Assembly: GCA_023436385.1 (NCBI GenBank)
Contig: JAEZJH010000582.1
Location: 1-41,490, forward strand
Source: Pseudomonadota bacterium
GTDB lineage: Bacteria; Myxococcota; Myxococcia; Myxococcales; Vulgatibacteraceae
Direction: 5' to 3'
Length of the DNA stretch: 41,490 nucleotides
Below the pieces are notes generated by a model that did no database searches, was not told where the DNA came from, and worked only from the letters and a program-made list of their open reading frames with translations. Every line of letters starts with the position of its first letter. Position 1 is the first letter of the stretch. Positions 993-35,330 of the stretch are shown in pieces. The position numbers and the translations under genes are program-made.

Positions 993-1324
993 CCCGCCCC
1001 AAATCCGAAGCCACCATCCTCCGCGAAGTCCTCCTCGCCGTCGGCTCCCGGCCCGACTGTCTCGCCATTCGCCGTTCGGTGGGCACCGCCCGCGACCCGC
1101 TCACCGGCCAGGTGTTGCGCTTCGGGCTCGAGGGCGAGGCGGATATCGAGGCGATCGTGCGAGGCGGGCGCGTCGTCTTCCTCGAGTGCAAATCCGCGAC
1201 CGGCACCCAGCGCCCGGCCCAGCGCGCGTTCCAGGCCCGCGTCGAATCCCTGGGCGCCGCCTACCGGATCGTCCGGTCGGCAGAGGAAGCCATCCAGGCC
1301 GTCGAGGAGGTCATCGCTTGCTAG
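989..1324 (+). CDS. VRR-NUC domain nuclease
   Basis: GTG at 989 overlaps the upstream stop (GTGA) and follows GAGGAGGGGGAGGGA. EADIEAIV...VVFLECKSATGTQRPAQRAF matches the VRR-NUC D..E.K core as I recall it. Confidence 0.7.
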   Translation: MTRPKSEATILREVLLAVGSRPDCLAIRRSVGTARDPLTGQVLRFGLEGEADIEAIVRGGRVVFLECKSATGTQRPAQRAFQARVESLGAAYRIVRSAEEAIQAVEEVIAC

Positions 1325-3447
1325 CCATCACCATCGGCGCCGGGCGGCGCAATCCGCGCGGCCGGCGCCTCCCCCTCGAGCCACAGGTGCCGCCCGCCCG
1401 CGCCCTGGCGGAAGCGCTAGCGAGGCAGCCCGCGAGCAAAGAGGCGTGGTGGAGCCCGCATCTGTGGCAGGGCGAGCACCGCAAGCAGGACGGGTGGGAG
1501 GGCGCGTCGGCCATCGCCATCGACCTCGACTACCACGACGCCGCCGGGACGCATACGGAACCGCCCGCCGAATCAGTCAGGGCGCTGCAAACCCTCGCGG
1601 CCACCGGAGCCCTGCCCGGCTCCCTGCTGCATCTGACGCCCCGCGGGGCGCGGCTGGTGTTCTGCCTGCCAGACCTCGCCGCCGACCGCGAGCGGTGGGA
1701 GGGCGCGGCGCGGGAGGCCGGTAGGCGGGTGGCCGCGGCGATCGGCAGCGCCTCCGGCTACCGGGTGGATCCGGCGGTTCTGGTCGATACGGCGCGCTTC
1801 CTCTACTCGCCCCGGGCCAAGGTGGATGGGAAGGCCAGAGACGCCGCGGTCCAGGTGCTGCGCGACGAGCCCTACACGCTCGAGGAGCTCCAGCCGGCCG
1901 ACACCGAGCCCCCCGCGCCGCCCCAGCCGAAGCCGGTAGCCGTATCCCTCGAGGATGCCATCCAGCGCTACAACGCCGACCACGCGCGCGAGTGGCCGAA
2001 GTCGGACGGGGACTGCCCGGCCTGCGGTCACAGGCGGTGTTTCGCGCGGCTCCCATCCGATCCATCTCGCTGGGTCTGCTTCTCGTCTTCCCACTCGCAG
2101 CCCGGCATCCAGGCCAACAACTGCCACCACGGGGACGCGCTCGACCTGGACGCCTACACCCAGTCCCTCAAGCCCGCCGAGCTGCTGCGCCGAGAGGGCT
2201 ACCTCCCCGCCGCACGGCTCGCCCCCGCGCCTCCGGCCGAGGCTGGAACCGCTGTCGGAACCGAATCCGCGACCCAAGACCCCGCCCCGCTCACCTACGG
2301 CAAGGGCTACGCCACCGTCGTTCAGATCCTCCGGCACGACTCCCGGGTGATCCCCGAACCCCTCGAGTGGAACGAGATGCTGTGCTCGCCCACCATCGGC
2401 GGCGTCCCGGTGGAGGACTCGACAGTGGGCGTCATCCGCGAGCGGATCGAGTGCTACTGCCGGGATTCCAAGGGCAAGCCGCTCCGGCCGTCCGCGGCCG
2501 ACATCACGATGGCCATCGACCAGGTGGCCCAGGAGCACCGCTACCACCCCGTGGCCGAGTACCTCCGGTCCCTCCGTTGGGACGGGCTCGAGCGGATCTC
2601 GCTCGTCGCGCCGGACGTGCTGGGGGTCAAAGACTCCGAACTCGCCCAGTTCATCCTGCGCCGCTGGTTCATCAGCGCCGTAGCCCGCCCGCTCGACCCG
2701 GGCTGCAAGGTCGATACGGTGTTGATCCTCAAGGGCTCCCAGGGCGCGCTCAAGTCCACCTTCTTCGCCACCCTCGCCGGGCCGGATTGGTTCGCGGACA
2801 CGGCGATCGACATCGGCAACAAGGACGCCCTGCTGATCCTCCGGCGCGTCTGGATCCTCGAGTGGGCCGAGCTCGAGGCGATGTCCCGAGCCCGGGACGC
2901 GGGCGCCGTCAAGGCGTTCCTCTCCTCCCGCTCCGACACCTACCGGCCGCCGTTCGGGCGCCGGGTCGTGGACGCCAAGCGGCACTGCGTCATCGTCGGC
3001 TCGACCAACGAGGACGATATCCTCTCCGACTCCACCGGGAACCGGCGCTACTGGGTCCTCCCCGTGCCGGGCCGCATCGACACCGCCGCGCTCGCACGCT
3101 GGCGCGACCAGCTATGGGCGGAAGCCGTCCACCTTTACCGAAGCGGCGAGCGCTGGTGGCTGACGCCAGACGAGGAGGCGGTCATGGAGGAGGCCCAGGC
3201 GCACTACCTGCGCTCCGATCCGTGGGAGGAACTGATCGGCGCGTGGCTTTCCAGGCGCGACCACTTCACCCCCCTCACCACCTCCGAGGTGCTGGACAAG
3301 GCCCTCCGCAAGCCCGAGGGGCAGTGGACCTCGGCCGACCAGCGCCGGGTCGCCAGCGTCCTCCGGGCTCTAGGGTACGAGTCCCGCACCGAGCGGGACG
3401 CCGGTGGAGGCCGGGCGCGCTGCTGGATCCGCAGGGCCACGGGCTGA
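1318..3447 (+). CDS. Bifunctional primase-polymerase / VirE (D5-like) NTPase replication protein
   Basis: TTG at 1318 lies 8 nt after GAGGAGG (alternative start GTG 1387). AIAIDLDYHD is a prim-pol acidic motif; CPACGHRRCF is a zinc finger; ILKGSQGALKSTF is a Walker A; WILEWAELE and GSTNEDDILSDSTGNRRYWVLPV are typical of VirE/D5 C-terminal NTPases. Confidence 0.8.
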   Translation: MLAITIGAGRRNPRGRRLPLEPQVPPARALAEALARQPASKEAWWSPHLWQGEHRKQDGWEGASAIAIDLDYHDAAGTHTEPPAESVRALQTLAATGALPGSLLHLTPRGARLVFCLPDLAADRERWEGAAREAGRRVAAAIGSASGYRVDPAVLVDTARFLYSPRAKVDGKARDAAVQVLRDEPYTLEELQPADTEPPAPPQPKPVAVSLEDAIQRYNADHAREWPKSDGDCPACGHRRCFARLPSDPSRWVCFSSSHSQPGIQANNCHHGDALDLDAYTQSLKPAELLRREGYLPAARLAPAPPAEAGTAVGTESATQDPAPLTYGKGYATVVQILRHDSRVIPEPLEWNEMLCSPTIGGVPVEDSTVGVIRERIECYCRDSKGKPLRPSAADITMAIDQVAQEHRYHPVAEYLRSLRWDGLERISLVAPDVLGVKDSELAQFILRRWFISAVARPLDPGCKVDTVLILKGSQGALKSTFFATLAGPDWFADTAIDIGNKDALLILRRVWILEWAELEAMSRARDAGAVKAFLSSRSDTYRPPFGRRVVDAKRHCVIVGSTNEDDILSDSTGNRRYWVLPVPGRIDTAALARWRDQLWAEAVHLYRSGERWWLTPDEEAVMEEAQAHYLRSDPWEELIGAWLSRRDHFTPLTTSEVLDKALRKPEGQWTSADQRRVASVLRALGYESRTERDAGGGRARCWIRRATG

Positions 3448-3731
3448 CACGGATGCACGGATGTGACACGGATGCCGAGCGACCATCCGTGTCAGGCTTT
3501 TCCATTGTGTTTTCATTGGCTTGGACGATTCTGACACGGATACACAGATGATCCTACCTATGGAGGAGAATATGAAGAGGAGAGGGGGGAGGTACGCACG
3601 CGTTAAGCGCGTAGAGGGCACTTTCATCCGTGTATCCGTGTCAGAAGCCGCCAAGCCATCGATATCTCTTGTCATTCCGCGACACGGATGCCCCTCGACC
3701 ATCCGTGTCGCATCCGTGTCTATCCGTGTCA
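3445..3731. repeat. Iteron-like array of about 11 copies of tGACACGGATgc in both orientations around a low-GC, purine-rich core; candidate origin of replication
   Basis: Forward copies at 3445, (3456 partial), 3464, 3532, 3680. Inverted copies at 3484, 3625, 3635, 3699, 3711, 3721. The low-GC stretch 3495-3530 and the polypurine run 3562-3592 lie between the copy clusters. No credible ORF. Confidence 0.6.
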
Positions 3732-3741
3732 GGAGCCCCCG

Positions 3742-4140
3742 ATGCGCGTGACCATACGCCCGGACGGGGCGCGGACGTTCCCCTCCGTCGAGTCGGCGCT
3801 GCTGTTCGCGCTTTCCTTCTCGCCCTCGAGAGGCATCGACTACGCGGGCGTCTCCCTGCGCGACAACGGCCACCAGCAGCGCGAGCTGCTCGAGCTACGG
3901 GGGCGCGTGCTGGCGTGCCTCTCTGGCCTGCCTGCCCCCATCCGCCAGGCCCTCTGCGACCGCACCACGGGGCACTCCTTGGCCCACTGCGCCCGGGTCG
4001 CGCGCGTGCGCGCCTGCCACGTCGGCGCCGTCCTGGCCGATGCGCGGGCCACGCTCGCCTATCGGATGCGGCTGGCCGGGCTGCTGCCCCCCGCTTGGGG
4101 TTATCTCGAGGCGCCATCGAACCCGGTGTCCGAGGATTGA
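3742..4140 (+). CDS. Small DNA-binding regulator, sigma-70 region-4-like HTH (possible late-gene regulator)
   Basis: ATG at 3742 lies 6 nt after AGGAG. LSGLPAPIRQALCDRTTGHSLAHCARVARVRACHVGAVLADARATL resembles ECF-sigma region 4. Sits directly upstream of the packaging genes. Confidence 0.45.
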   Translation: MRVTIRPDGARTFPSVESALLFALSFSPSRGIDYAGVSLRDNGHQQRELLELRGRVLACLSGLPAPIRQALCDRTTGHSLAHCARVARVRACHVGAVLADARATLAYRMRLAGLLPPAWGYLEAPSNPVSED

Positions 4141-4367
4141 CGGGAACGACCGGCTGGGGTATGGACAGGATCGTTGATTCGTGCGCCCGGGGCCGAGAGG
4201 CTGCCGGGCGCGGTCGTTCCTAGGGGCCAGCGTCACCGCCCCACCGCCGGCTCCAGCCGGCACCTCCCGCCGCACACCTCGCCAGGACCCAGCCACACGC
4301 CACCGCCCCGCCTCGCGCGCGGCTCCCTCCCCCGAGGCCGGGGCGGGCGCGGTGGGGTGATGGAGCC

Positions 4368-4802
4368 ATGATGCCCACCGCCGCCCCGCGCGTGTGCTCG
4401 TACCGCGGCTGCACGCGACTCACAGACGGCGGGTCGCGTTGCTCACTGCATCCCTACGAGCCGAGGCGGGAGCGGACGCGGCAGGACCGCCGCTACGACG
4501 CCGAGCGGGGCAGCGCGAGCGAGCGCGGGTACGACGGTGCGTGGCAGCGACTACGGGCTGTCGTCCTGGCCGAGGAGCCGCTGTGTCGCGCGTGTCGGAG
4601 TCGAGGACGACGGACGCCGGCCACAGAGGTCGACCACATCGAGCCGATCGCCAGCGCACCCGCAAGGCGGCTGGACCGGGCCAACCTCCAGGCGCTGTGT
4701 CACGCCTGCCACATAAGCAAGACCCATGCCGAGCGTGCTGCGCAAGGTTTGCGGGAGGCGCAAAAGCTGCGCGCGACCCGGCCCAGAGGGGGGGGCGGCT
4801 GA
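4368..4802 (+). CDS. HNH endonuclease (packaging-associated)
   Basis: EVDHIEPI...NLQALCHACHISKT HNH core with an N-terminal Cys cluster. Classic position in front of terS/terL. Confidence 0.9.
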   Translation: MMPTAAPRVCSYRGCTRLTDGGSRCSLHPYEPRRERTRQDRRYDAERGSASERGYDGAWQRLRAVVLAEEPLCRACRSRGRRTPATEVDHIEPIASAPARRLDRANLQALCHACHISKTHAERAAQGLREAQKLRATRPRGGGG

Positions 4803-4924
4803 AAGGCTGGGGTGGGGCAGAACTGACCGCGCGGGTGAATTCGACTCGGATACGTGGCAGTCCGGCCGCAAATTTTGCGGTTGATGCTGCTCATGGCGCA
4901 AGTCCTGCGCATATGGTGACGTGA

Positions 4925-5404
4925 ATGGGCAAGCGCGGACCGCACCCTCTGCCACGCGACGTCAAGCTCGAGCGCGGCACGTTCCGCTCCTCCCGCGAAC
5001 GCGACGGCGCGGCGCCACCGCCTGCTGGCGACGTTCCACCGCCGGCCGCGCTGTCGGGTCGAGCGCTGGCGATCTTCGGCGAGTTGGTCGAGGAGATGCG
5101 TGACGCCGGCACGCTCTCCCGCGCCTACCGGCGGACCATCGCGCACCTGGCGCGGATCGAGGACCGGGCCGAGAGCATCCGCGAGGAGATGGCCGGGCAG
5201 GAGCTTATCCGCGAAGTCGAGAACACGAACGGCGTGCTGGTCCCCAAGACCAACCCGTGGCTCGCGCAGCTCCTGGAGCACGAGAAGGAAGCTCGCCTGC
5301 TCTACGACGTGTTGGGTCTAACCCCGCGCGGCATCGTCCGCGCTCCGAAGACGCGCAAGGCCGAGACCGCCGCCGCCAATCCGTTCGCCGCGTTCGCGGT
5401 GTGA
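4925..5404 (+). CDS. terS: Terminase small subunit (P27-like)
   Basis: The N-terminal GKRGPHPLP...KLERGT and TNPWLAQLLEHEKEARLLYDVLGLTP match the P27-family small terminase pattern. Position between HNH and terL. Confidence 0.8.
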   Translation: MGKRGPHPLPRDVKLERGTFRSSRERDGAAPPPAGDVPPPAALSGRALAIFGELVEEMRDAGTLSRAYRRTIAHLARIEDRAESIREEMAGQELIREVENTNGVLVPKTNPWLAQLLEHEKEARLLYDVLGLTPRGIVRAPKTRKAETAAANPFAAFAV

Positions 5405-5408
5405 GAGT

Positions 5409-7052
5409 GTGAGAGACTACGCAGCCATCGCCACGCAGTATGCGCGCGACGTGGTGGAGGGGAAGATCCTCACCGGCCAGTTGGTCCGCGCCGCGTGCCA
5501 GCGCCACCTAGACGACCTCGAGCGCGGCGTCTTCATGTTCGACGCATCCAGGGCCGCGCGGGTCTGTTCGTTCATCGAGGCGTGCCCGCACGTCAAGGGC
5601 GAGTGGGCGAAGCGCCGGGAGCTGATCAAGCTCGAGCCCTGGCAGGTCTTCGGGTGGGCGTCGGTGTTTGGCTGGGTGCGGGCAGACGGAACGCGCCGCT
5701 TCCGCCGCGTCTACTGGGAGGTGCCGCGCAAGAACGCCAAGAGCACGATGGCGTCTAGTGTCGGGCTCTACTGCGCGAGCGCGGACGGGGAAGAAGGCGC
5801 CGAGGTGTACTGCGGCGCAACCACCGAGCAGCAGGCGTGGGAGGTGTTCCGGCCCGCGAAGCAAATGGTGGAACGCACCGCGGCGATGCGCGAGGCGCTT
5901 GGCCTGGAGGCGTTCGCGGCGTCCATCCGCCAGGACCGCACCGGCTCCCGCATGGAGCCGATCATCGGCAAGCCTGGCGACGGTGCCTCGCCGTCCTGCG
6001 CGATCGTTGACGAGTACCACGAGCACGCCGACTCGACGCTATACGACACAATGCAGACGGGCATGGGCGCGCGTCGGCAGCCGCTGCTGATCGTGATCAC
6101 GACGGCCGGCGTTGACCTCGCCGGCCCGTGCTACGCCGAGCACCTGGCGGCCCGCAAGGTATTGGAAGGCGCCGAGCAGGACGATGAGCTTTTCGCGCTG
6201 ATCTACACGCTCGACGACTCCGAGGATTGGACGACCGAGGCCGCGCTCTGGAAGGCGAATCCGAACGCCGGGGTCAGCGTTTCGATCGACTACCTGCGCT
6301 CGTCGCAGCGCGAGGCGGTTCGGAATTCGAGCAAGGCTGGGACGTTTCGGACTAAGCACCTCAACCAGTGGGTGACGGCTCGTTCGCCGTACTTCAACCT
6401 CGAGCGGTGGAAGGCCGCGCCGAGGTGTTCGCTGTCCGAACTCTCCGACTGCGAAGCCATCGTCTTTCACGACCTGGCGTCGAAGAAGGACCTTGCGGCG
6501 CGCCTGCTGGTGGCGAAGCGCGACGATGGCACGTATGCGGTCGTGCCGAAGTTCTGGCTCCCCGAGGATCTGGTCGATGAGGCGCGGCACGGCAAGTATC
6601 GCGAGTGGCGCGATGCGGGCTGGCTTGCCACCACGCCCGGCAACATCATCGACTTCGCCGCAATCGAGGACGATCTGCGCGAGGTCCGCGAGTCGGTCGG
6701 CAGGCTGGTCGAGGTCGCATACGACCCATTCCAGGCCACGCAGTTCGCGACACGGATGCAGGCCGATGGGTTCCCGATGGTCGAATACGGGGCCACGGTC
6801 AAGAACTTCTCCGAGCCGATGAAGGCGACGGACGCGCTGATCCTTGCCGGCAAGATCGCGCACGACGGCAACGAGGTGATGACGTGGTGCATGAGCAACG
6901 TCGTCGCGCGGACCGACGCGAAAGACAACGTGTTCCCGCGCAAGGAAAAGCCCGAGAACAAGATCGATGGGGCCGTGGCTCTGATTGGAGCCATTGGCCG
7001 CTGGCTCGCCCAGGTCGAAGAGGAACAGGCCGCCGCGTTCGTGCGGCTGTGA
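5409..7052 (+). CDS. terL: Terminase large subunit
   Basis: 547 aa. WQVFGWASVFGW...YWEVPRKNAKST is a Walker A-like ATPase segment; IVDEYHEH is a Walker B; the C-terminal part is nuclease-like. Layout of the Terminase_1 family. Confidence 0.9.
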   Translation: MRDYAAIATQYARDVVEGKILTGQLVRAACQRHLDDLERGVFMFDASRAARVCSFIEACPHVKGEWAKRRELIKLEPWQVFGWASVFGWVRADGTRRFRRVYWEVPRKNAKSTMASSVGLYCASADGEEGAEVYCGATTEQQAWEVFRPAKQMVERTAAMREALGLEAFAASIRQDRTGSRMEPIIGKPGDGASPSCAIVDEYHEHADSTLYDTMQTGMGARRQPLLIVITTAGVDLAGPCYAEHLAARKVLEGAEQDDELFALIYTLDDSEDWTTEAALWKANPNAGVSVSIDYLRSSQREAVRNSSKAGTFRTKHLNQWVTARSPYFNLERWKAAPRCSLSELSDCEAIVFHDLASKKDLAARLLVAKRDDGTYAVVPKFWLPEDLVDEARHGKYREWRDAGWLATTPGNIIDFAAIEDDLREVRESVGRLVEVAYDPFQATQFATRMQADGFPMVEYGATVKNFSEPMKATDALILAGKIAHDGNEVMTWCMSNVVARTDAKDNVFPRKEKPENKIDGAVALIGAIGRWLAQVEEEQAAAFVRL

Positions 7053-7317: not shown

Positions 7318-8387
7318 TGCGTCTGGCGATGGATTTGAGGTCGATGCCGCTCCGTGCCGGCGGCTTCTCCCTCCCCCTCCGCACCTCCCTCGTCGGCAGC
7401 GATGGCAGGGTTGCCACCTTCTCCTGCGCATCGAAGGCATGGTACGAGGACGCGACCGGCCGCATCGTCGAGGTCGCCGCCGGTGTGCCCCGCCAGCGCC
7501 CGGACCTCGGGACGCTGATCGAGGAGCCGCGGACGAATCGGCTGCTGTGGTCGCGGGACCTTACGAATGCGGCGTGGGTTGCGACGAGTGCTACAGTGGT
7601 GCGCTGTCACGGGGTTGATGGGCTAGCCGGAACGGCGTCAACTGTCACCGCAACCGCCGCCAATGGTCAGTCGCTCCAGACCATTTCGGGATTGACGTCT
7701 GCGGCGCGTATCGGGTCGGCGTGGATTCGCCGCAGAACAGGCAGCGGGACCGTCTACATCACCAACGGGGCGACTGTTGAGCCGGTCGATGTGGACGGTA
7801 CTTGGCGGAGATTCTTTGTAGCGCGTGCGGCTGCGACATCATTCGTGTTTGGCGTGCGAATAGCCGTTGTTGGTGATGCGGTTGATTTCGATTTCGCCCA
7901 AGTCGAGGACGGAACCTTCCCCACCTCCCCGATCTGGACCGAGGGCACCGCCCTCGCCCGCGCCGCGGACGTGCTCCACATCTCGACCACCGGATGGCCC
8001 ATCACGGCCGGCACCGTGCGCCTGCGCTACCGTGCCATCACCGGGGCCGGTGACGATCCGTGCGTGCTTCTCGACACCCGCGCCGCCGCGCTGTCGCCCG
8101 GGTACATCCTCGAGGTGCGAGCCGGCGGCACCGTGGCGCTCGTTATCGGCGACGGCTCGACGTTCCCGCGCGTCGAGGCGGCACACGGAGGCTTCGAGCC
8201 TGGCCGGCTCATCGAGGCGCGGTGGGGCGTTGGATCCGGGCGGATGACGGTCGGAGCGACCACCGCATCCGGCGCGCTGATCTCCCCAACCGGAAGCGCC
8301 GCGATCGGCTACCTGGGCCGGCGCGTTGATGGCGTGGCTGACGTGTACGCCAACGGATGGATTGCGGACCTGGAGGTTGCGGCGTGA
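7314..8387 (+). CDS. Hypothetical protein with a tail-fibre/lectin-like (ConA/LamG-type) signature
   Basis: 357 aa. NRLLWSRDLTNAAWVATSATV followed by a long beta-strand-like region resembles the N-L-L-x-x-S-E-x-F-x-x-x-x-W start of jelly-roll fibre/receptor-binding domains. Start overlaps the upstream stop. Confidence 0.5.
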   Translation: MMRLAMDLRSMPLRAGGFSLPLRTSLVGSDGRVATFSCASKAWYEDATGRIVEVAAGVPRQRPDLGTLIEEPRTNRLLWSRDLTNAAWVATSATVVRCHGVDGLAGTASTVTATAANGQSLQTISGLTSAARIGSAWIRRRTGSGTVYITNGATVEPVDVDGTWRRFFVARAAATSFVFGVRIAVVGDAVDFDFAQVEDGTFPTSPIWTEGTALARAADVLHISTTGWPITAGTVRLRYRAITGAGDDPCVLLDTRAAALSPGYILEVRAGGTVALVIGDGSTFPRVEAAHGGFEPGRLIEARWGVGSGRMTVGATTASGALISPTGSAAIGYLGRRVDGVADVYANGWIADLEVAA

Positions 8388-24371: not shown

Positions 24372-25054
24372 GAGACATACTCCGAACCGCCACCCTCCTC
24401 GCCGCAGGCGCGGTCCTCGCCCTCCTCCTCGCCCGCTCCTGCTCAAGCCCGCCGCCGGTAGTGGTCGATGCCGTGGAGCTCCATCGCATCGAGACGGAGA
24501 GGGCGAGGCTCGCGGAGGAGGTCGCCCGCGAGCACGCGGCGATCGACGCGCGGGCGCGGGAGCTGGCGGGGCTTCCGCTGTACGAGCGGATCGAGGTGCT
24601 GACCGTAAGCGAATCCGCACGGCGGGCCGCTTCCGTAAGCGAATCCGCAAGGGCACCGGCCTTTGATAAGGACGCCGCGCCGGGAGCCGTATCAAAGCCC
24701 GACCGCTGCCGCCCTACCGGCGACGGCCACGCCCTCTGTCCGGAGTGGGTCCTCGACGCGCTGACCCTGCGCCTCGTGAGCGCCGAGGCCGACCGCGACT
24801 CGGCCCGCCTCGACCTCGACGCGGAGCGGGTCTACCGCCGGCTCGACGCGGAGGCGGCGGCGACCCGGGAGGCGGGATACCTCGCCGCCCTCGACGCAGC
24901 GAAGCCGCCGGCAGCGTGGCGGCTACCGGCGGCGGTGGTTTCGGGGGCGGCGGTAGCGGCCGGGGTTGCCGCTGCCATCGCCGGACACGAGCGGACTGGC
25001 GCCGCCATCGGCATCGGCGGGGCGGTGCTGGTGGGGGCGGCGCTCGCGCTCTAG
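24368..25054 (+). CDS. Spanin-like protein (unimolecular-spanin topology candidate)
   Basis: GTGA overlap with the holin stop. N-terminal signal/anchor ending in ...LLARSC, a central Ala/Arg/Glu-rich helical region and a C-terminal TM (AIGIGGAVLVGAALAL). Confidence 0.45.
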   Translation: MRDILRTATLLAAGAVLALLLARSCSSPPPVVVDAVELHRIETERARLAEEVAREHAAIDARARELAGLPLYERIEVLTVSESARRAASVSESARAPAFDKDAAPGAVSKPDRCRPTGDGHALCPEWVLDALTLRLVSAEADRDSARLDLDAERVYRRLDAEAAATREAGYLAALDAAKPPAAWRLPAAVVSGAAVAAGVAAAIAGHERTGAAIGIGGAVLVGAALAL

Positions 25055-25419
25055 CGGCGCGGCTTCCCCGCCGTCCGGATCGGCCCCGTCCTCGGCGGCG
25101 TCTCGTCGCGCTGCTCATAGCGGATCTGGTCGCCGGCACGGCGGGTGACCGCCATCGGACGATCGGCTTGGGTGAGGTGGCGGCGGTTCGCCAGCCAATC
25201 CTCCATGCGCCGCTCCTCCTCTGCCGTCGGCCGTGGCGGCGGCTCCCAGGTCATGGTGAACCGCTCGAGGTCCGCGAGAACCAGCGGCGCGGCATCCTCC
25301 GGCAGCGGCTCCAGCGGCGCAAACGCCTCGGCGACGTACCGCACCCGGTCGAGGTCGGGGTCGAGCCGGAACGCCAGCCGGGCGACGCGCGAACGGCAGT
25401 AGACGATCCGGCTAGCCAT
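25051..25419 (-). CDS. Hypothetical protein
   Basis: Last gene of the leftward arm. Its stop is interlocked with the spanin stop (CTAG). High GC3. Confidence 0.5.
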   Translation of the reverse strand: MASRIVYCRSRVARLAFRLDPDLDRVRYVAEAFAPLEPLPEDAAPLVLADLERFTMTWEPPPRPTAEEERRMEDWLANRRHLTQADRPMAVTRRAGDQIRYEQRDETPPRTGPIRTAGKPRR

Positions 25420-25612
25420 GGTCCACCTCGCCCGTCGGCACCTTGATCGCCTTGAGAAACAGGAGCCCGTGGCCCTGCAGGATCGGTCGCTGGAGCATCC
25501 AGCGACAACCGGGATGGCGCGGCAACAGCATCTCGGCCTCGCCTTGGGTCACAGGGTCGAGGCCCGGCGGGTAGCGGTCGAGGTTGACGATCGCCTTGAG
25601 CACGTCACCCAT
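25412..25612 (-). CDS. Hypothetical protein (66 aa)
   Basis: ATG at 25612 follows AGGAGGAGGGAGAGGGTG. Overlaps both neighbouring genes. Confidence 0.5.
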   Translation of the reverse strand: MGDVLKAIVNLDRYPPGLDPVTQGEAEMLLPRHPGCRWMLQRPILQGHGLLFLKAIKVPTGEVDHG

Positions 25613-25835
25613 CACCCTCTCCCTCCTCCTCCGCCCTCACCATCCGCCCCAGCTCGCCCTGGATCTCCGGGTCGGTCGGCGGCTGCGTCAGCCGCTCCGC
25701 CTCCCGGATGACCACCGCCCGGATCCAGGTCGAGGGCGCGAGGCCGGGACAGGTCGCCTCGGCCGCGCGCTCGACCATCTCCCGCTCCGCCGCGGTGAGG
25801 CGGAGCGAGATGGGGTTCGTCCGGAGGCGGGGCAC
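25605..25835 (-). CDS. Ribbon-helix-helix (CopG/MobC-like) DNA-binding protein
   Basis: RTNPISLRLTAAEREMVERAAEA...STWIRAVVIREAERL is a typical RHH beta-strand plus two helices. GTG at 25835 overlaps the upstream TAG. Confidence 0.6.
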   Translation of the reverse strand: MPRLRTNPISLRLTAAEREMVERAAEATCPGLAPSTWIRAVVIREAERLTQPPTDPEIQGELGRMVRAEEEGEGDG

Positions 25836-26224
25836 TAGCGGGACTCCTCGGCGGCGGGCTCCACCTCCCACTCCCGACACCAGCGCGCGAACGCCTGGTC
25901 GATCTCGTAGGGGTCGGCGGACACCTCCTCATCGAGCGCGTCGGCCGGGACCCAGATGTACGCCTCGTCGTGGTCCGTCGCCTTGACCAGCTCGCCGCGC
26001 CGCTCGACCACCTCGAGCCCGAACGCCGCGCGGGCGGGCTTGACCTCGACGACGCGCAGCTCGCCTTCGGCCACCGGCGCGACCTCGCACATGTCCGCGT
26101 AGCTGTCGTGGCCGGCATCCCGCGCCAGCGCCTCGAGCGCGCCCGCCTCGTCCTCCGCGTGGTACGTGCCGAGGTCCACGCCCGCCCGCTGATTCGTGAT
26201 CCGCCAGCTCTTCATCGTCTCCAT
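25835..26224 (-). CDS. Hypothetical protein
   Basis: ATG at 26224 lies 6 nt after GGAGGGG. High GC3. Confidence 0.55.
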   Translation of the reverse strand: METMKSWRITNQRAGVDLGTYHAEDEAGALEALARDAGHDSYADMCEVAPVAEGELRVVEVKPARAAFGLEVVERRGELVKATDHDEAYIWVPADALDEEVSADPYEIDQAFARWCREWEVEPAAEESR

Positions 26225-26296
26225 GATCCCCTCCGTGGTCCTGCGTGTGGTGATGGAGCGGGAGGTCTGCGGCCCTCCCGCGAGTGGCCGTCCTGG

Positions 26297-26800
26297 CTAC
26301 CCCTCGTAGTCGCTCTGGGCCCGCTCGGCGTCCCTGTACCAGCTCGACCAGGAGGACAGCGACCCCTCGCCAGAGCGCACGCCCTCGGTGGCGCGGGCCG
26401 CGCACGCCTCGCGGTCGAGGCACCGGACCAGCCAGCCGCCGGCCCTGTAGAGCTCGCCCTGGCCCTCGCCGATGTGCCGGCCGCAGCAGGAGCAGGTGCC
26501 GGCGTAGCTATTGCGGCGGACCTGGCGGGGCGCCGGGGCGGCGACCGGGGCGGGCTCGGGCTGCGTCTCGACGGCCGGTGCGGCGGTGCGCGTCACGTAG
26601 GCGCGGATGGCGTCCCGGAGGCGGCTGCGGTTCACCAGCGTCTCGGCCCGCGCGATGGCTGCGTCACGCTCCTCGTCGGTGGCGGCGGTCGTGTAGATGA
26701 CCTCGACGATCTCCGCGACCTCGGCATCCTCGTAGACGTAGCGCCGGTACCCCGCCTTCGGCTCCCGCTGCGCCAGCACCTCGTCGATCGTCCTCGCCAT
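26297..26800 (-). CDS. Hypothetical protein with a C-terminal Cys cluster (zinc-ribbon-like)
   Basis: ATG at 26800 follows GGAGGGGAGCG. GTCSCCGRHIGEGQGELYRAGGWLVRCLDREAC. Confidence 0.55.
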   Translation of the reverse strand: MARTIDEVLAQREPKAGYRRYVYEDAEVAEIVEVIYTTAATDEERDAAIARAETLVNRSRLRDAIRAYVTRTAAPAVETQPEPAPVAAPAPRQVRRNSYAGTCSCCGRHIGEGQGELYRAGGWLVRCLDREACAARATEGVRSGEGSLSSWSSWYRDAERAQSDYEG

Positions 26801-26900
26801 CGCTCCCCTCCGTCGTCGATGGTGGTACTGTAGTGCCTGGCGCTACGGATGGCAAGAGGGCGACTAGGCCCCTGGTGGGGCGTGCCCTTGAGACGGGCTG

Positions 26901-28505
26901 CTAGTATCGCTGTTTCCGTTTGCGGTACGCGCGTTTAGCCGCGATCCCGGTCACCGAAAACGGCATGTTCGGAGGTGCGCGGTCCTTCGGCGAGGACGGA
27001 ACGCCTCCGCGATTTGCGGGCGCGATCCCCCGCAGCTCGACGCGGCCGTCCGGGTGGAGCCACACGCCGTGGACGCCGGGCCGCGGGCAGAGCGCGCGGA
27101 GCACCCGCCGTCGCTCGTCGGGCGTGGCCGCCGCCAGCCGCGCACGGTATGCCTCGAGCACGCTGCCGGCCTCGGCGCTCGCGGTGGTCGCAGTCGCCAG
27201 CTCCTCGATCTGCCGCCGCGCGTCCGCCAGCCGCTCGTCGGCCAGCGCCCGCTCTCCCGCCAGCACCTGGGTCGCGAGGTCGTAGGCCGCGTCCGTGAGC
27301 TGGCCGTGGGACCAGCGCAGCGTGAGTCCGCTGACCTTCCCGTCGAACTCCTTCAGCCGCCGTTCTGCGGCCTCCGCCTCGGCACGCAGCTCGGCCCCGC
27401 GGTCGGCGCGCTTCTGCGGCCGTGCTCGCTCGAGGTAGCCGGGCTCCTCCAGCACGCGCCGCGCCATCCCCCAGACGACCTCCTCGACCCGATCCCGCCG
27501 CCAGCTGTTGCCGCAGCGCTCGACGCCCTTGGCGCGGTAGTGGGGATGGGCGCTCGCGCAGACAAGGTAGGGCGTCCGCGCGCGGCCGACGTTCGACGCA
27601 TGCGCCGGCAGCCCGCAGGCCGCGCACCGGCAGAGGCCGGCGAGCCAGTGCAGGTCGCCCTTGAGGTAGGTCCTGGCCGTGCCCAGCGCCCGCTGCGTGC
27701 GCTCCCAGAGCTCGCGGTCGATGATCGCCGGCACCTGCACGATCCCCCCGGCGTGCCGCCACTCGCCGAGATAGGTCCGCGACCGGAGCAGCGACCAAGC
27801 CCGGCCGTAGGAGATCGGGCGCCCGCGCTTGCCGAATCGGCCCTCGGCGCGCAGTCGCTCCTCCACCTCGCGCGTCGAGCAGCCGGCGGCGGCCAGCTCG
27901 TAGGCGCGGCGCACGGTCGCCGCCTCGTCCTCGACAATCTCCCAGCGGTGGTCCTCGCGGTGGTGGCGCAGGCCCAGCGGGTCCGTCCCGCGCGGCTTGC
28001 GGCCGGCGCGCACCGCGCGGAGGTGGCCGGCGGACGTGCGGGCGAGGATCATGCTCTTCTCGAAGCCGGCGACCCCCGGCCCAAGCATCGTGAACATGAA
28101 GCCTTGCGTGGGGTCACGGAGGTCGATGGTCATGCCGCCGGCCAGAATCTGCACTCCGGCCCGCTTGCAGGTCTCGGCGATCGTCCCCCAGTCCGACAGG
28201 CCTTGCGAGCGACCCAGGCGGTCGAGCGCCTTGACGGCCACCGCATCGAAGCGGCCGGCGGCCACGCCCTCAAGGAGCTCGCGGAAGCGCGCACGGGCGG
28301 CGATCGTCTCGCCGCTGATGCCGGGCTCGACGTAGAGGGTCAGCTCCCACCCGTGGAGCTTTGCCTGCTCCTGGAGCCACGCGACCTGGACCTCGTGAGT
28401 CTCCTCGCGGCGCTGGCCGTCGCTCGACGTGCGGGCGTAGCCGGCCACGCGCAGGGGCGCGCCCTGCTCACGCGGCGGGGCGAGGGTCGGACGGGGCGTC
28501 GGCAT
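26901..28505 (-). CDS. int: Large serine recombinase (serine integrase)
   Basis: LRVAGYARTSSDGQ is the catalytic Ser region. Also present are a resolvase domain, a recombinase domain, a Cys-rich zinc-ribbon region (CRCAACG...C...C) and a C-terminal coiled coil. Start ATG 28505 is preferred (GGAG 7 nt upstream); codons 28538-28506 have low GC3. Confidence 0.9.
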   Translation of the reverse strand: MPTPRPTLAPPREQGAPLRVAGYARTSSDGQRREETHEVQVAWLQEQAKLHGWELTLYVEPGISGETIAARARFRELLEGVAAGRFDAVAVKALDRLGRSQGLSDWGTIAETCKRAGVQILAGGMTIDLRDPTQGFMFTMLGPGVAGFEKSMILARTSAGHLRAVRAGRKPRGTDPLGLRHHREDHRWEIVEDEAATVRRAYELAAAGCSTREVEERLRAEGRFGKRGRPISYGRAWSLLRSRTYLGEWRHAGGIVQVPAIIDRELWERTQRALGTARTYLKGDLHWLAGLCRCAACGLPAHASNVGRARTPYLVCASAHPHYRAKGVERCGNSWRRDRVEEVVWGMARRVLEEPGYLERARPQKRADRGAELRAEAEAAERRLKEFDGKVSGLTLRWSHGQLTDAAYDLATQVLAGERALADERLADARRQIEELATATTASAEAGSVLEAYRARLAAATPDERRRVLRALCPRPGVHGVWLHPDGRVELRGIAPANRGGVPSSPKDRAPPNMPFSVTGIAAKRAYRKRKQRY

Positions 28506-28659
28506 CTGCGGTCTCCGGCAAGAACTCGGATAGGACATCTATCAGGGCGGCCTCCTCCTCGGGAGTCCCCGGCACCTGCACGTAGGCGATCGACACGGCC
28601 GCCCGGCTCCGGTACACGCGGGGCGTCGTCGCCTGGCGCTCGGTCGTCTCTCCGCCCAT
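28468..28659 (-). CDS. Small hypothetical protein overlapping the int start
   Basis: ATG at 28659 follows GGAGGAGGGAGG. High GC3. Its 3' end overlaps the first 38 nt of int. Confidence 0.45.
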   Translation of the reverse strand: MGGETTERQATTPRVYRSRAAVSIAYVQVPGTPEEEAALIDVLSEFLPETADADAPSDPRPAA

Positions 28660-28823
28660 CACCGCCTCCCTCCTCCGTCCGTCCGCCGCACCTCGCGCAC
28701 CGCCGTTTCCACCCAGCGGATCGCGTGCGGCACGCCATCGACCAGCCGCCGCGCCGCGAGGTACAGGCGCTCCAGGGCGAGGTGCCGGCGCCGCTCGACG
28801 AGCACGTATTCCTCGCGGGTCAC
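28659..28823 (-). CDS. Small hypothetical protein (54 aa)
   Basis: GTGA overlap at 28820-28823. TGATG overlap at its 3' end. Confidence 0.4.
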   Translation of the reverse strand: MTREEYVLVERRRHLALERLYLAARRLVDGVPHAIRWVETAVREVRRTDGGGRR

Positions 28824-29047
28824 GGGCTCGCCCACGTCCGGCACTCCGCACCCGGGCAGCGCGCGCCCTCCAGGGCCCCGGCGATCACCCGGTCGTCGGC
28901 GGCCTGCTCGACCAGATCGCGGCACGCGAGACAGGCGGCCGGCGGGCCATCGCGGAAGGCGCTACGGAACCGCGCGGTCCGCAACACAACGAGGCCCGCG
29001 TTGTTGATCTCGTTGTCGGCCGACTCGAAAAGCGGGAGCTGGTCCAT
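28820..29047 (-). CDS. Hypothetical protein (75 aa)
   Basis: ATG at 29047 follows GGAGAGGAGGGAGG. Confidence 0.5.
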   Translation of the reverse strand: MDQLPLFESADNEINNAGLVVLRTARFRSAFRDGPPAACLACRDLVEQAADDRVIAGALEGARCPGAECRTWASP

Positions 29048-29247
29048 CACGCCTCCCTCCTCTCCACCGTGCGCCGCCTCCGCTCCCTCCACGTCCACCA
29101 CAGCTCGTCTCCGGCCATCGTCCCGAACCCGCCCGCGAAGACGCCGGCAATCAGCACGCGGATGGTCTGCGCGTCGTCCACCTGCGCGCCGCCGGCCGCC
29201 CCAAAGAGCAGACCCATGAGCGCGAACACGACCCAAGTATTTCGCAT
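29047..29247 (-). CDS. Small membrane protein (two hydrophobic helices)
   Basis: WVVFALMGLLFGAAGGA and VLIAGVFAGGFGTMAG. Basic C-terminus. Confidence 0.5.
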   Translation of the reverse strand: MRNTWVVFALMGLLFGAAGGAQVDDAQTIRVLIAGVFAGGFGTMAGDELWWTWRERRRRTVERREA

Positions 29248-29822
29248 CACCCCTCCACATCCAGCGCCGCCAGGTACGCCCGCTTTTGCGCGATTAGATC
29301 GTCCATTATGCGCGCGACGGCACCTGGCGCGTCCATCGGGTCGGCCGACGCCGGCAGGCTAACCAGCGCGTTTAGCAAGCAAACCGCATCGATCTTCTGG
29401 CCGCGCATCAGCATCCCGATGGCTGACCGGATCTGGTTCTTGAACCAAGACACATTGGCCCGCTCTGCTCGCCGCCTGGACTTCTTGCTGCCGGACCTAA
29501 GTTGCTTCACCTGGTTCCGTAGGCCGGCAATCTCGGCGCGGGCTTGCATCATGGAATCGGAGCCTGGCGGCACCGGAAGGAACGTGACGACCAGCTCTTC
29601 CTCCGGGTCGAACACGGCGTAGGCATGGGCACCGGCGACGTGGACCCAGGCTTCGACCCGCCTTTCGCCGTTCCCGCGGCGGCCCTCTCCGCCTCCGGCT
29701 GCAAGCGCATCGCACAGGCCGGCGTACTCCTCGATCGGCAAAGCCTGCCCGTACCTCTGCCGGAACCTGTGGGCGGCATGCAGATAGCGCCGCATGTAGC
29801 GGTCGGTCTTGGACTCCTTCAT
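29247..29822 (-). CDS. Hypothetical protein
   Basis: ATGA overlap at 29819-29822. 191 aa. Confidence 0.55.
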   Translation of the reverse strand: MKESKTDRYMRRYLHAAHRFRQRYGQALPIEEYAGLCDALAAGGGEGRRGNGERRVEAWVHVAGAHAYAVFDPEEELVVTFLPVPPGSDSMMQARAEIAGLRNQVKQLRSGSKKSRRRAERANVSWFKNQIRSAIGMLMRGQKIDAVCLLNALVSLPASADPMDAPGAVARIMDDLIAQKRAYLAALDVEG

Positions 29823-30187
29823 GCTTTCTCCCCATCCAGCGCCCGGAGCTTGGCTTTGAGCGCGTCCCTCTCCCGCTCCACCTCGGCCAGTCGGTCGCGC
29901 AACTCGACGTTTCGCGCCCGGACCCGCTTCGCCTCCCACGGCGAGCCCCACCCGAACACCTGCCGCTCGATGTCCTCCATCGTGTCGCGGCAGGCGTCGG
30001 TCAGCCGGTAGGTGTGCGGCGCGATGCCGGGCTCCGCGCGACCGCCCTTGAGCATCATGCCGATCTGCCGGTCCACGTCCTCGCATGGCGCGTCGAGGCG
30101 CTTGGCGATCCAGGTGACCGTGACCTCGCCGCGCCCTCGCTTGCCGGCGGCGTAGAGCGCGGCCATGACGTTGCGCTGCGGGATCAC
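29819..30187 (-). CDS. Putative winged-helix DNA-binding protein with a C-terminal coiled coil
   Basis: VTVTWIAKRLDAPCEDVDRQIGMMLKGG (HTH-like) and ELRDRLAEVERERDALKAKLRAL (coiled coil). Confidence 0.4.
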   Translation of the reverse strand: MIPQRNVMAALYAAGKRGRGEVTVTWIAKRLDAPCEDVDRQIGMMLKGGRAEPGIAPHTYRLTDACRDTMEDIERQVFGWGSPWEAKRVRARNVELRDRLAEVERERDALKAKLRALDGEKA

Positions 30188-30492
30188 GGCTCACCCCCAT
30201 CCAGCGCCAGGAGCGCGGCGATCAGCCCGGCCCGTGCCTCGGTGACGTGCCGCTCCACCGTCACGGCCTCGCACGGCCCGGCCCACGGTCGCGCCGCCCG
30301 CGCCGCCAGCGTGTCCCGGTAGTCCCTCGCCGCCTCGCACACCTCGGCCATCCTCCGCACCCGCTCCTCCCTCGCCTCGTCGCAGTCGGGCGAGCCCTGG
30401 CGGATGCAGCAGCCCGGGAACGCGCCGCCGCCGTGCCAGTAGTCGAGATCGGAGAGCGCCGGACGGTGGCAGAGGGGGCACCTATCGGGCAT
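30184..30492 (-). CDS. Cys-rich hypothetical protein
   Basis: ATG at 30492 lies 7 nt after GGAGG. CPLCH...CC...C motifs. Confidence 0.5.
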   Translation of the reverse strand: MPDRCPLCHRPALSDLDYWHGGGAFPGCCIRQGSPDCDEAREERVRRMAEVCEAARDYRDTLAARAARPWAGPCEAVTVERHVTEARAGLIAALLALDGGEP

Positions 30493-30847
30493 CGCGGGGC
30501 CTCCAATCCGGGCACGGGTCGGCGCTCAACCAAAGCCCGCGCTCGCACGCTTCGTTGCCACACGTCGGGCACTGTCCGTCGCGGTTGCACTCCATGCCTG
30601 GCTTGCGCTTGTTCGGCTCGCGCCCGCTGGGACCGAAGTCGCCCTCCATGCCGCACGGGCACGACACCTTGAGGCGGGTTTCGTGCGTGTCGCCGGGCGT
30701 GAACTTGATCTCGGTGGCGAAGGTGATGTCGGTCCCGTGGCAGATCGGGCAGGCGAACTTGTCGCGGGGCAGTCGCGCACCACGGAAGGCCAGCGCAAAG
30801 AGGAGGGCCACGACCCACCCGACGACGGCGAGGATGGTCGCAATCAT
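30482..30847 (-). CDS. Membrane-anchored zinc-ribbon protein
   Basis: ATGA overlap with the dut stop. N-terminal TM (IATILAVVGWVVALLFALAF) followed by CPICH...CPCG...CPTCGNEAC. Confidence 0.55.
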   Translation of the reverse strand: MIATILAVVGWVVALLFALAFRGARLPRDKFACPICHGTDITFATEIKFTPGDTHETRLKVSCPCGMEGDFGPSGREPNKRKPGMECNRDGQCPTCGNEACERGLWLSADPCPDWRPRDAR

Positions 30848-31275
30848 CGCGTCCCCGTCGAGCCGAATCCCCCGGCCCCGCGCTGCGTCTCGGAAAGCTC
30901 CTCCACCTCGACCACCTCGCACCTCGCTACCGGCGCGATGACGAGCTGGGCGATGCGGGAGCCCCACTCGACGCGGTACGAGACGGACGATCGATTCTCC
31001 AGGATGACGCCCACCTCGCCCCGGTAGTCGGAGTCGATCGTGCCCAGGATGGCGACGATGCCCTCCCGGGACGCGAGCCCGGAGCGCGGCCGCAGCTGCC
31101 CCTCGTAGCCATCAGGGATCTCGACGGCGATGCCGGTGCGGACGGTGCGCCGCTCGCCGGGAGCAATCCAAAGCGTCTCGGCCGCGTGCAGGTCGAGACC
31201 TGCGGCACCCGGCGTCTGGTAGGCCGGGACGGGAAAGCCAGGCACGAGGCACTTCACCTTCAGCGTCGGATTCAT
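30844..31275 (-). CDS. dut: dUTP diphosphatase
   Basis: AAGLDLHA, RPRSGLA, GTIDSDYRGEVGVIL and RGAGGFGSTG are the canonical dUTPase motifs. Confidence 0.92.
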   Translation of the reverse strand: MNPTLKVKCLVPGFPVPAYQTPGAAGLDLHAAETLWIAPGERRTVRTGIAVEIPDGYEGQLRPRSGLASREGIVAILGTIDSDYRGEVGVILENRSSVSYRVEWGSRIAQLVIAPVARCEVVEVEELSETQRGAGGFGSTGTR

Positions 31276-31475
31276 TCCGTCTCCATTTCGTCGGCGGACT
31301 CCCAACACACATCGCCGCCCTCGGCATCGATCGACAGCCACACCCGGGCGCCGCACTCCCCGCACACGGCCTCGTCGCCGTCGCGGAATAGGCCCTGGTC
31401 GTCGCTCCCGATCACGTCCTCGCCGCAGTCGGGGCAGGTGATCCAGGCGCGGACCTGTGGTGGCTTCGAGCCCAC
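31272..31475 (-). CDS. Small zinc-ribbon protein
   Basis: CPDCG...CGECG. Confidence 0.55.
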   Translation of the reverse strand: MGSKPPQVRAWITCPDCGEDVIGSDDQGLFRDGDEAVCGECGARVWLSIDAEGGDVCWESADEMETE

Positions 31476-31477
31476 GG

Positions 31478-31927
31478 CTAGTCCTCCCCCGCGAGCGCGG
31501 CGCGGGCGATGGATTGCGCCTCGGCTGCGTAGGTGCGCCCGTCCGCGATCCTCTCCAGCGCCTCCCGGTAGCGGGCGGCCTCGGCGCGGGCCTTATCCCG
31601 CTCCCGCACCAGCCGGCACGCCTCCTCGACGCCGCATTCGCAGGAGCGGATGGTGAGGGTATCGTCCCTTTCCCTTTCCGCCCTCGCGGCCCGCTCCTCG
31701 GCGGCGGCGAGGCGGGAGCGGAGCTGCGCCACCTCCGCGATCGCAACGTCGGCAGCGCAGACCATGCAACCGTCGGGGTCCAACTCGTCGTCGATGCAGC
31801 CGGCATGGCGGTGCGTCTTCATCACCTCCACCAACAGACCGTCGAGGATGCCGGGGCCGGTGTAGCGTTCAAGCAGGTCAGCGTCTCGTTCAGGGCTGCG
31901 TGGCATCGGATCCAAGGGCTCCATCAT
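31478..31927 (-). CDS. Hypothetical protein
   Basis: 149 aa. High GC3. RBS GGGGAGGGA. Confidence 0.5.
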   Translation of the reverse strand: MMEPLDPMPRSPERDADLLERYTGPGILDGLLVEVMKTHRHAGCIDDELDPDGCMVCAADVAIAEVAQLRSRLAAAEERAARAERERDDTLTIRSCECGVEEACRLVRERDKARAEAARYREALERIADGRTYAAEAQSIARAALAGED

Positions 31928-32145
31928 TCCCTCCCCGCCAGCGCGGCGATGGCGTCGGCTGCGCCGTGCATCGATCCGGCCCGCAACACCCCCTCGGCCT
32001 CCCGCAGCGCGGCGGCGCGGGCGTCACGGGCGGCGGCGCGGAGGGCGGCGAGGATGTCTCGCTGCAACTCGCTACCGGTCTCGTCCCACACGAGTCGCGC
32101 CCTCTCCTCCACCGTCAGCCCCGGCTCCTCCCACGGATTACCCAC
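31924..32145 (-). CDS. Hypothetical protein (73 aa)
   Basis: GTG at 32145 lies 7 nt after GAGGAGG. Confidence 0.45.
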   Translation of the reverse strand: MGNPWEEPGLTVEERARLVWDETGSELQRDILAALRAAARDARAAALREAEGVLRAGSMHGAADAIAALAGRE

Positions 32146-32374
32146 GAGCCACCTCCTCGCACTCGTGGCTGTCGCGGCACGTCTCACACATCCCGTCGGC
32201 GCCGCAGTCGTCGCACCCGCTCACGTCGCGCTCGGGGATGAGCGTGCCGCACGTCTCGCACGGCGTCGTCGCGGGCTCCTGGCAGTCGTGCCGCCCGCAC
32301 TTCTCGCAGACCGACCGCGCCATGTGATACGGCGGGACCCACACGACGGAGCCGTGGCAGAACTTGCAGATCAT
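32138..32374 (-). CDS. Cys-rich zinc-finger protein (78 aa)
   Basis: ATGA overlap. CKFCHG...CEKCG...CETCG...CDDCG...CETC. Confidence 0.55.
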   Translation of the reverse strand: MICKFCHGSVVWVPPYHMARSVCEKCGRHDCQEPATTPCETCGTLIPERDVSGCDDCGADGMCETCRDSHECEEVARG

Positions 32375-35274: not shown

Positions 35275-35330
35275 CGCCGCCTCCTACCGGCCCGCCCCTC
35301 CGGCGAGAGGAGCGGACCGGGCAGATACGG

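Follow-up and report, generated by a model that had tools for sequence, protein, structure and literature searches.

The Rep proteins of the Staphylococcus aureus pathogenicity islands (SaPIs) are both initiators and helicases, and recognise the iterons of their origins through a C-terminal winged helix (PMC9371898). These origins comprise 6-12 iterons directly downstream of rep, arranged around an AT-rich centre with at least two opposed iterons on each side, with two hexamers presumed to load, one to a side (PMC9371898). The phage-inducible chromosomal islands (PICIs) of Gram-negative bacteria have the same origin organisation, which has been functionally tested (PMC6092414). The present analysis concerns a 41,490-nt stretch of DNA (contig JAEZJH010000582.1 of assembly GCA_023436385.1, hereafter the window), which holds the genome of a temperate siphovirus, and in particular a repeat array at 3444-3732. 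The array directly follows the gene of the putative initiator (1318-3447, plus strand), a 709-amino-acid (aa) VapE-family superfamily 3 (SF3) helicase with a primase-like N-terminal half, resembling Rep. On the sequence comparisons set out below, there is good reason to regard 3444-3732 as the replication origin of the phage, read by the winged helix of the upstream SF3 primase-helicase. The origin is very probably of the self-loading SF3 initiator-helicase type found in SaPI and PICI satellites and in Sfi21-like phages; this design is already known, and the window provides a further case of it.

The array was searched with the 10-mer GACACGGATG, allowing up to two mismatches, which returned 12 sites within 3444-3732, six in each orientation, with the motif GACACGGAT(G). 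Nine of these are exact, and the exact 9-mer GACACGGAT, present nine times in 3446-3730, occurs once elsewhere in the 41,490 nt, at 6749. The forward sites are at 3446, 3454 (two mismatches), 3465, 3533 (one), 3541 (two) and 3681, and the reverse sites at 3484, 3625 (one), 3633 (one), 3700, 3711 and 3721 (one). An earlier note on this DNA had described about 11 copies in 290 bp; the cluster is confirmed, with coordinates agreeing to within 1-2 nt, but the count is 12, a degenerate copy at 3541 having been overlooked. As that note had observed, the first copy contains the stop codon of the helicase gene (TGA, 3445-3447) and the last abuts the ribosome-binding site (RBS) of the next gene (AGGAG, 3731-3735), which is followed after six nucleotides by the ATG at 3742. 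The array had also been called too short-period and too irregular for a CRISPR locus. A CRISPR array, in which direct repeats of about 23-50 bp alternate at regular intervals with unique spacers, can indeed be rejected, the repeats being 10 bp long, in both orientations and at spacings of 8-141 bp, but the arrangement is not irregular, given its mirror symmetry about 3587.5.

This two-fold symmetry, directly visible in the positions of the sites, divides the array into two mirror-image sets of six, which can be written as >>> < >> to the left of the centre and << > <<< to the right, with site centres at >-137, >-129, >-118, <-99, >-50 and >-42 on one side and <42, <50, >98, <117, <128 and <138 on the other. 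Each half-array consists of three tandem sites with a period of ~10 bp, one inverted site, a gap of ~50 bp and an inner tandem pair, and in each half the inverted site and the third tandem site together form a 29-bp palindrome; the two palindromes (3465-3493 and 3681-3709) are 90% identical. The inner pairs, at ~42 and 50 bp on either side of the dyad, bracket a core of 74 bp. Ungapped global self-complementarity around 3587 gives a modest signal because the spacers differ, and the symmetry is therefore one of sites and not of sequence. From left to right, the elements are the outer tandem pair of forward sites 1-2 (3444-3463, plus strand); the left palindrome of forward site 3 and reverse site 4 (3464-3494; 11-bp arms, 9-bp spacer; inverted repeat I13, direct repeat D2); a T-rich, low-GC spacer of the left half-origin (3495-3530); the inner tandem pair of forward sites 5-6 (3531-3550, plus strand); the low-GC core (3551-3624), presumed to be the melting region, with the dyad centre at 3587/3588; the inner tandem pair of reverse sites 7-8 (3625-3644, minus strand); the right palindrome of forward site 9 and reverse site 10 (3679-3711; 12-bp arms, 9-bp spacer; inverted repeat I9, direct repeat D2); and the outer tandem pair of reverse sites 11-12 (3711-3732, minus strand), with no strand being assigned to the palindromes, the spacer and the core.

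The claim that the repeats flank the stretch of lowest GC content is borne out, as the genome minimum falls within the array at every segment length tested, from 36 to 300 nt. For 36 nt there are two minima, 3497-3532 in the left spacer and 3541-3576, both at 38.9%; for 100 nt the minimum is 3484-3583 (45%) and for 300 nt it is 3444-3743 (55%), in a genome of ~70% GC. A polypurine run of 31 nt had been reported at 3562-3592. The longest unbroken purine run of the genome is located here (3574-3592, 19 nt), as is its most purine-rich 40-mer (3559-3598, 82.5%), but three T residues interrupt the 31-nt stretch.

The 709-aa product matches Pfam PF05272 (VapE-like) at 4.6e-79, and phmmer returned PDB 7PDS as the sole sequence match among solved structures (E=1.6e-32); according to the paper of its depositors, 7PDS is SaPI1 Rep1 bound to DNA. 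An AlphaFold2 model of the protein, built with 44 homologs, has a mean predicted local distance difference test (pLDDT) score of 90.5, and in a Foldseek search of the PDB the six chains of 7PDS came first (best E=3.6e-25, with 453 of 454 target residues aligned, and template modelling scores of 0.65-0.70 normalised to the target), followed by poxvirus D5/E5, NrS-1, African swine fever virus PrimPol and SaPI5 PriRep. The predicted secondary structure at the C-terminus, residues 635-705 (3220-3432, plus strand), comprises helices at 635-646, 655-662 and 672-684 and strands at 687-693 and 699-705, in blocks with pLDDT of 85-95. This succession of three helices and a beta-hairpin is confidently predicted to have winged-helix topology, with the third helix (H3, residues 672-684, SADQRRVASVLRA) as the recognition helix. 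It is this C-terminal domain of the upstream helicase that is the likely binder of the iterons, and not the product of 3742-4140, which had been put forward previously alongside the helicase. For the N-terminal half of the window protein, a Pfam search gave no match; however, Prim-Pol (PF09250) and PriCT domains are detectable in some close homologs, which makes 'primase-helicase' a fair label. The confidently modelled N-terminal half (1318-2500, plus strand) has a CxxC...C..H zinc-type motif (DGDCPACGHRRCF...), and two relatives, L002 and L005, have an EGxxD Toprim-like motif in the aligned N-terminal region, which suggests that different primase modules may have been fused to the same helicase. 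The closest homolog, P0003, has 63% identity and lies on a contig that stops 13 nt past the stop codon.

Set beside SaPI1 Rep1 and the pri-rep-ori units of PICIs, the array has every sequence-level property of an origin of this type. The initiator is a homologous VapE-type SF3 helicase of the Rep type, as indicated by PF05272 and by the phmmer and Foldseek matches to 7PDS; its C-terminal winged helix is present in the predicted model, the fold alignment covering the whole Rep1 chain; the origin lies directly 3' of the gene, with the stop codon in the first iteron; and the iteron sets, six on each side with the inner iterons opposed, flank a low-GC centre containing the genome minimum, the 12 sites falling in the published range of 6-12. 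The proposal in the earlier note, an origin in which iterons and an unwinding element lie beside the initiator, is thereby upheld by the Rep1 homology, the predicted winged helix and the SaPI/PICI layout, as well as by the relatives and phage Sfi21 considered below. There are also differences. Primase and helicase are fused in the 709 aa, as in SaPI5 but unlike SaPI1, the iterons are of 9-10 bp as opposed to 5-6 bp in SaPIs, and the centre, unlike that of SaPI origins, is only relatively AT-rich (45% GC in a 70% GC genome). Furthermore, the host element is a 41-kb temperate siphovirus with virion genes and not a 10-15 kb satellite. A PICI or SaPI is a small, helper-dependent island without a full virion module, a description that does not fit the 41.4-kb genome of the window; the replicon type is common to both, yet the element in the window is a phage and not a PICI.

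A phage with such an arrangement has been described. In Streptococcus thermophilus phage Sfi21 (GenBank AF115103), a 302-bp non-coding origin, or phage inhibitory sequence, is annotated at 34487-34784 and overlaps the 3' end of orf382, a 'putative primase'; its behaviour is that of an origin which infection activates, and the evidence for this is summarised in PMC6356513. Like the window, Sfi21 is a bona fide temperate phage with a DEAH helicase upstream, the stop codon of its helicase is in the first repeats and its last repeat is beside the RBS of the next gene. The order and orientation of the sites are also the same, with inner pairs at +/-38 and 46 bp around an AT core, GGTTAC sites at ~-128 to -90 and outer sites on the other side at 92-126. 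Sfi21 differs from the window in its GGTTAC motif, in its truly AT-rich core and in orf382, which belongs to a sister SF3 branch (DUF5906 and Pox_D5) and is preceded by a separate Prim-Pol gene; a pairwise BLAST of orf382 against the window protein found no similarity.

The alpha protein of satellite phage P4 is a single polypeptide with a primase, an SF3 helicase and, at its C-terminus, a winged helix that binds the origin by reading short repeated octamers, but the P4 origin is bipartite (ori and a distant crr) and does not lie directly after the alpha gene, and the SF3 subfamily is a different one. Iteron-bearing theta plasmids (RepA, pi, TrfA) and the lambda origin also have repeated initiator sites beside an unwinding element; their initiator is not a helicase and recruits host DnaB, and the lambda origin lies inside the O gene. 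The plasmid class is characterised by tandem direct repeats of 17-22 bp, a non-helicase winged-helix initiator and an AT-rich element on one side, whereas the window has 10-bp sites in both orientations, arranged symmetrically, and the adjacent protein is a helicase. In simian virus 40 (SV40) large T antigen and papillomavirus E1 the SF3 helicase is itself the initiator, with pairs of inverted short sites by easily melted DNA and loading as a double hexamer, although the DNA-binding domain is N-terminal and of a different fold, the sites are far fewer and the viruses are eukaryotic. The analogy with T antigen and E1 has been drawn in PMC7581432 for the SCCmec helicase Cch2, likewise of SF3 type, which binds iterons downstream of its own gene and works with a separate primase; compared with the window, only three direct iterons, and no 6+6 mirror layout, are reported there. 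The archaeal plasmid pRN1 is reported to require 166 bp downstream of the gene of its fused SF3-type primase-helicase, ORF904 (PMC4234260), and no 6+6 mirror layout is reported for it.

The position of the array was compared across 165 loci with relatives of the 709-aa protein (35-52% identity), drawn from IMG/VR, metagenomes and genomes, to which eight closer loci were added through exact-protein look-ups. In the 450 nt past the stop codon, at least five copies of an exact 8-mer are present in ~70 of 156 loci, whereas control segments of the same loci mostly contain 2-4. A position-agnostic scan of 111 dereplicated loci, in which a cluster was defined as at least six copies of an exact 8-mer, found a cluster in 48, and in 46 of these 48 its centre lies +70 to +465 nt from where the helicase match ends, a position for which the chance expectation is 13% (binomial p ~5e-38). 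The densest 8-mer cluster lies away from the 3' end of the helicase only in L049 (~+2.2 kb from the helicase end) and L057 (~-4.2 kb), the latter having a six-copy array at the usual place in addition.

While the position is conserved, the motifs vary widely, including GCCCTACC, GATCCAAC, TGACTACA, GCTACACC and GTGGTAAC among others. Nevertheless, the 6+6 pattern of orientations recurs among relatives, and in L047, L121, L169, L172 and L005 its spacing is kept within ~4 bp. In L047, which has a different motif and 42% core identity, the site centres are at >-136, >-128, >-118, <-95, >-51 and >-43 and at <43, <51, >95, <118, <128 and <136, and the geometry of L121, L172, L168, L169 and L005 is similar to that of the window. 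The central core of the window is partly conserved with that of L174, its nearest relative. Across the family the cores have a median length of 64 nt and average 11 points less GC than the gene next to them, being lower in 29 of 36. A purine-rich core was considered as a general feature and rejected, the mean purine content of the family cores being 0.53. In L005, a Hyalangium metagenome-assembled genome, the first repeat includes the stop codon, and the next start codon comes directly after the last repeat. In L167 (7095-7148), L168, L169 and L171 the first three or four iterons are within the last ~55 nt of the VapE open reading frame (ORF) and encode the tail of the helicase (...PQNKEVGQ, ...ENKVGT), so that this DNA is both coding sequence and origin sites.

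The gene order upstream of the array, superfamily 2 (SF2) helicase, VRR-NUC, VapE, is maintained in the close clade. Downstream, the next gene varies, from a Dam methylase in L005 to various small proteins in other loci and the ORFan of the window, and the terminases vary as well, with Terminase_6N in L005, Terminase_2 in L167, L168 and L171, and HNH with Terminase_4 in the window. In these comparisons the array travels with the helicase, and the variation in downstream genes and terminase types is evidence against both a packaging site and an operator of the downstream gene. One further candidate for the region itself was a small ORF at 3561-3751 (plus strand; 59-63 aa), with an RBS-like GGAGGAG and ATGs at 3561 and 3573, the frame of which runs from the core through the right-hand iterons until its TGA overlaps the start of the next gene. 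A similar frame is found only in L174, which shares the residues 'GRY', and the ORF was rejected as an explanation because it is absent from L168, L169, L171 and Sfi21.

The relationship between iteron and recognition helix can be followed most closely between the window and L174, which are 56% identical in protein sequence. The helix SADQRRVAS of the window goes with the iteron GACACGGATG and the helix SGDQRRVAS of L174 with GGGACGGATG; the two arrays are collinear and the same two-base change is found in every copy. Relatives with DEM(A/V/Q)V helices have iterons of the TGCCCAAC or GTCCCC types. CCATC is the motif in three loci with E-N-(R/K) helices, and ..ACC(T) that of most x-M-R helices. 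The pattern in the close clade is as expected from co-evolution of helix and iteron and is suggestive, phylogeny not being controlled for. Family-wide, a partial Mantel test on 38 loci found the motif to vary with the C-terminal domain, given the ATPase core, with r=0.12 (permutation p=0.02), while the reverse test gave p=0.22, and this covariation lends weak support.

Taken with the observed architecture, these results are consistent with a mechanism in which the early operon would express the 709-aa primase-helicase encoded just upstream of the array and its C-terminal winged helices would read the 10-bp iteron GACACGGAT(G). The twelve iterons would constitute two mirror-image half-origins of six, with one hexamer assembling on each; the correspondence of six sites to six subunits is our own suggestion. 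The two hexamers would then melt the low-GC core, the 74 bp enclosed by the inner pairs, each would encircle one strand and travel outwards 3'->5', and the N-terminal primase-like domain would lay primers for bidirectional initiation. Binding, the loading of two hexamers, core melting and bidirectionality are what we infer; specific binding has indirect support in the co-variation of recognition helix and iteron. It is possible, but tentative and on balance rather doubtful, that the 6+6 mirror layout is a general 'double-hexamer landing pad', with one iteron for each winged helix, and that residues 4-6 of H3 form an iteron code, in which Q-R-R would go with ..ACGGATG, E-N-R/K with CCATC and x-M-R with ..ACC(T). 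The 6+6 geometry is kept to a few base pairs in lineages whose motifs are unrelated and in both helicase branches, VapE and D5/DUF5906.

Several points weigh against the identification of the array as the origin. The support for an origin in this particular phage is computational throughout, and the nearest characterised phage example, Sfi21, is by its domain matches a user of the sister D5/DUF5906 branch. About half of the relatives are without an exact-8-mer array by the simple detector; their origin is then elsewhere, or else it is built on iterons that are shorter or more degenerate. The family-wide covariation of motif and C-terminal domain is weak, and many divergent helicases have a CCCTACCT-type motif in common. 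The cumulative GC skew, which the earlier note had suggested as a check, is weakly supportive: on the de-overlapped circle and after detrending, the minimum is at 4333 and the maximum at 23082, and this minimum is near the array and does not coincide with a change of gene orientation, but it is ~0.6 kb off, the raw (undetrended) minimum is at 39704, and phage GC skew largely follows transcription. Finally, given that the array sits at the early/late boundary, an additional transcriptional role is conceivable and the array may have one. As a separate observation on the relatives, the VapE gene of L002 (43% identity) is not followed by an array (7359-7600), the next ORF starting within ~17 nt.

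It is possible in principle that the array is an operator, through which a regulator, possibly the 132-aa product of the next gene (3742-4140, plus strand), acts on the late operon or on the gene that encodes it. The last three sites run up to the RBS and ATG of the next gene, in relatives too the last site adjoins the start of the gene that follows, and the array lies at the boundary of the replication and packaging modules. However, this explanation is unlikely. The downstream gene is an ORFan that adjoins the origin and stands outside the conserved origin module: searches found no homolog among 5.8 billion protein clusters, no Pfam or PHROG match and no similarity to the syntenic genes of L168, and the single-sequence structure model, in which the C-terminal half looks helical, is unreliable (pLDDT 51); the product has no recognisable DNA-binding domain. 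In relatives that keep the array the ORFan is replaced by unrelated genes, such as the Dam methylase of L005, no sigma-70-like promoter was found in the region, and the motif tracks the recognition helix of the helicase. Autoregulation of the downstream gene by the array, as suggested earlier, lacks support on the same grounds, the gene being an ORFan and differing among relatives. A reading of the region at the level of RNA, as a terminator or structured RNA that ends the early operon with the palindromes as hairpins, is very unlikely. The first palindrome does fold at -19.9 kcal/mol and is followed by GGCUUUUCC, and the whole centre can fold at -68 kcal/mol (z=-8), but such energies are a trivial consequence of inverted repeats. 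A scan of 3300-5000 for consensus promoters and terminators gave no hit within the array, no Rfam family matched 3000-4500 at E<=1, the T-tract after the first palindrome becomes A-tracts in L174 and L167, and what is conserved is the geometry of sites on duplex DNA and not base-pairing.

The genes for HNH, small terminase (TerS) and large terminase (TerL) follow within ~1-2 kb of the array, which raises the possibility of a packaging signal (cos or pac), the repeats of which would be bound by the small terminase like the R sites of lambda cosB; some cosB regions do contain multiple oriented repeats. Against this, three types of terminase are found among the relatives and the array stays by the helicase, at a variable distance from the terminase genes, while the motif co-varies with the helicase domain. 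In HNH-dependent cos phages, moreover, cos usually adjoins HNH/TerS, and there is a separate candidate gap at 4803-4924; a packaging role is accordingly judged even less likely than an RNA element. The inverted symmetry with repeated subterminal motifs also resembles transposon ends, as would be expected had a recombination site or a miniature mobile element, either one with subterminal inverted repeats, inserted in the intergenic gap. The array is nonetheless single-copy in the genome, has no target-site duplications, is 23 kb distant from the integrase and recurs at the same position in distant genomes with lineage-specific motifs and a fixed geometry, which makes insertion the most improbable of the explanations considered. 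An origin read by the upstream helicase thus remains the preferred interpretation.

For the window alone, this interpretation amounts to a solid annotation without surprise: a probable origin and its cognate initiator are located in a temperate phage of high GC content that is uncultivated and without close relatives in phage databases. More broadly, a SaPI/PICI-style origin appears to be common in full-size phages, and the combination of conserved geometry with changing motifs offers a simple rule for finding origins beside VapE- and D5-type helicase genes, as well as a natural data set on iteron recognition by winged helices. A less expected by-product is the precision of the 6+6 geometry across phage lineages, motifs and two SF3 branches. 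Should the proposed code of H3 residues hold, origins and initiator specificities would be predictable from sequence in thousands of uncultivated phages, and should the layout be a general one for double hexamers, an organisation described as unique to PICIs would be a widespread phage replicon that the satellites probably borrowed.

The window is a circular assembly, the first 127 nt (1-127) recurring at 41364-41490 as a terminal overlap, and the resulting 41.4-kb circle is a complete temperate siphovirus. A megablast of 1000-6000 against 50,697 phage records gave no match, the 29-bp palindrome pattern was not found when IMG/VR was scanned for exact occurrences, and no tRNA or tmRNA was found in the window. 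The virion genes comprise TerS, TerL, a protease, an HK97-type major head protein, a head-tail adaptor and a tape measure, and there are also an HNH endonuclease, a serine integrase, a Sak4-like annealing protein and a PD-(D/E)XK nuclease. On the plus strand, the order around the array is SF2 helicase (C-terminus at 25-567, the gene being split as it wraps the window ends), VRR-NUC-like nuclease (between the SF2 helicase and the 1318-3447 gene), VapE-family gene, a gap of 294 nt, the 132-aa ORFan, HNH (4368-4802), TerS (4925-5404) and TerL (5409-7052). The gap between HNH and TerS (4803-4924), a candidate cos gap, contains the palindrome CCGCAAATTTTGCGG at 4866-4880 and, at 4843, a one-mismatch copy of the iteron (GACTCGGAT) that is probably due to chance. 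The integrase, Sak4-like and PD-(D/E)XK genes are located with others in 25051-38364 (minus strand), running leftward, whereas the helicase/primase operon runs rightward from 38992 (plus strand), and the divergent region at ~38.4-39.0 kb is presumably the lysis/lysogeny switch.

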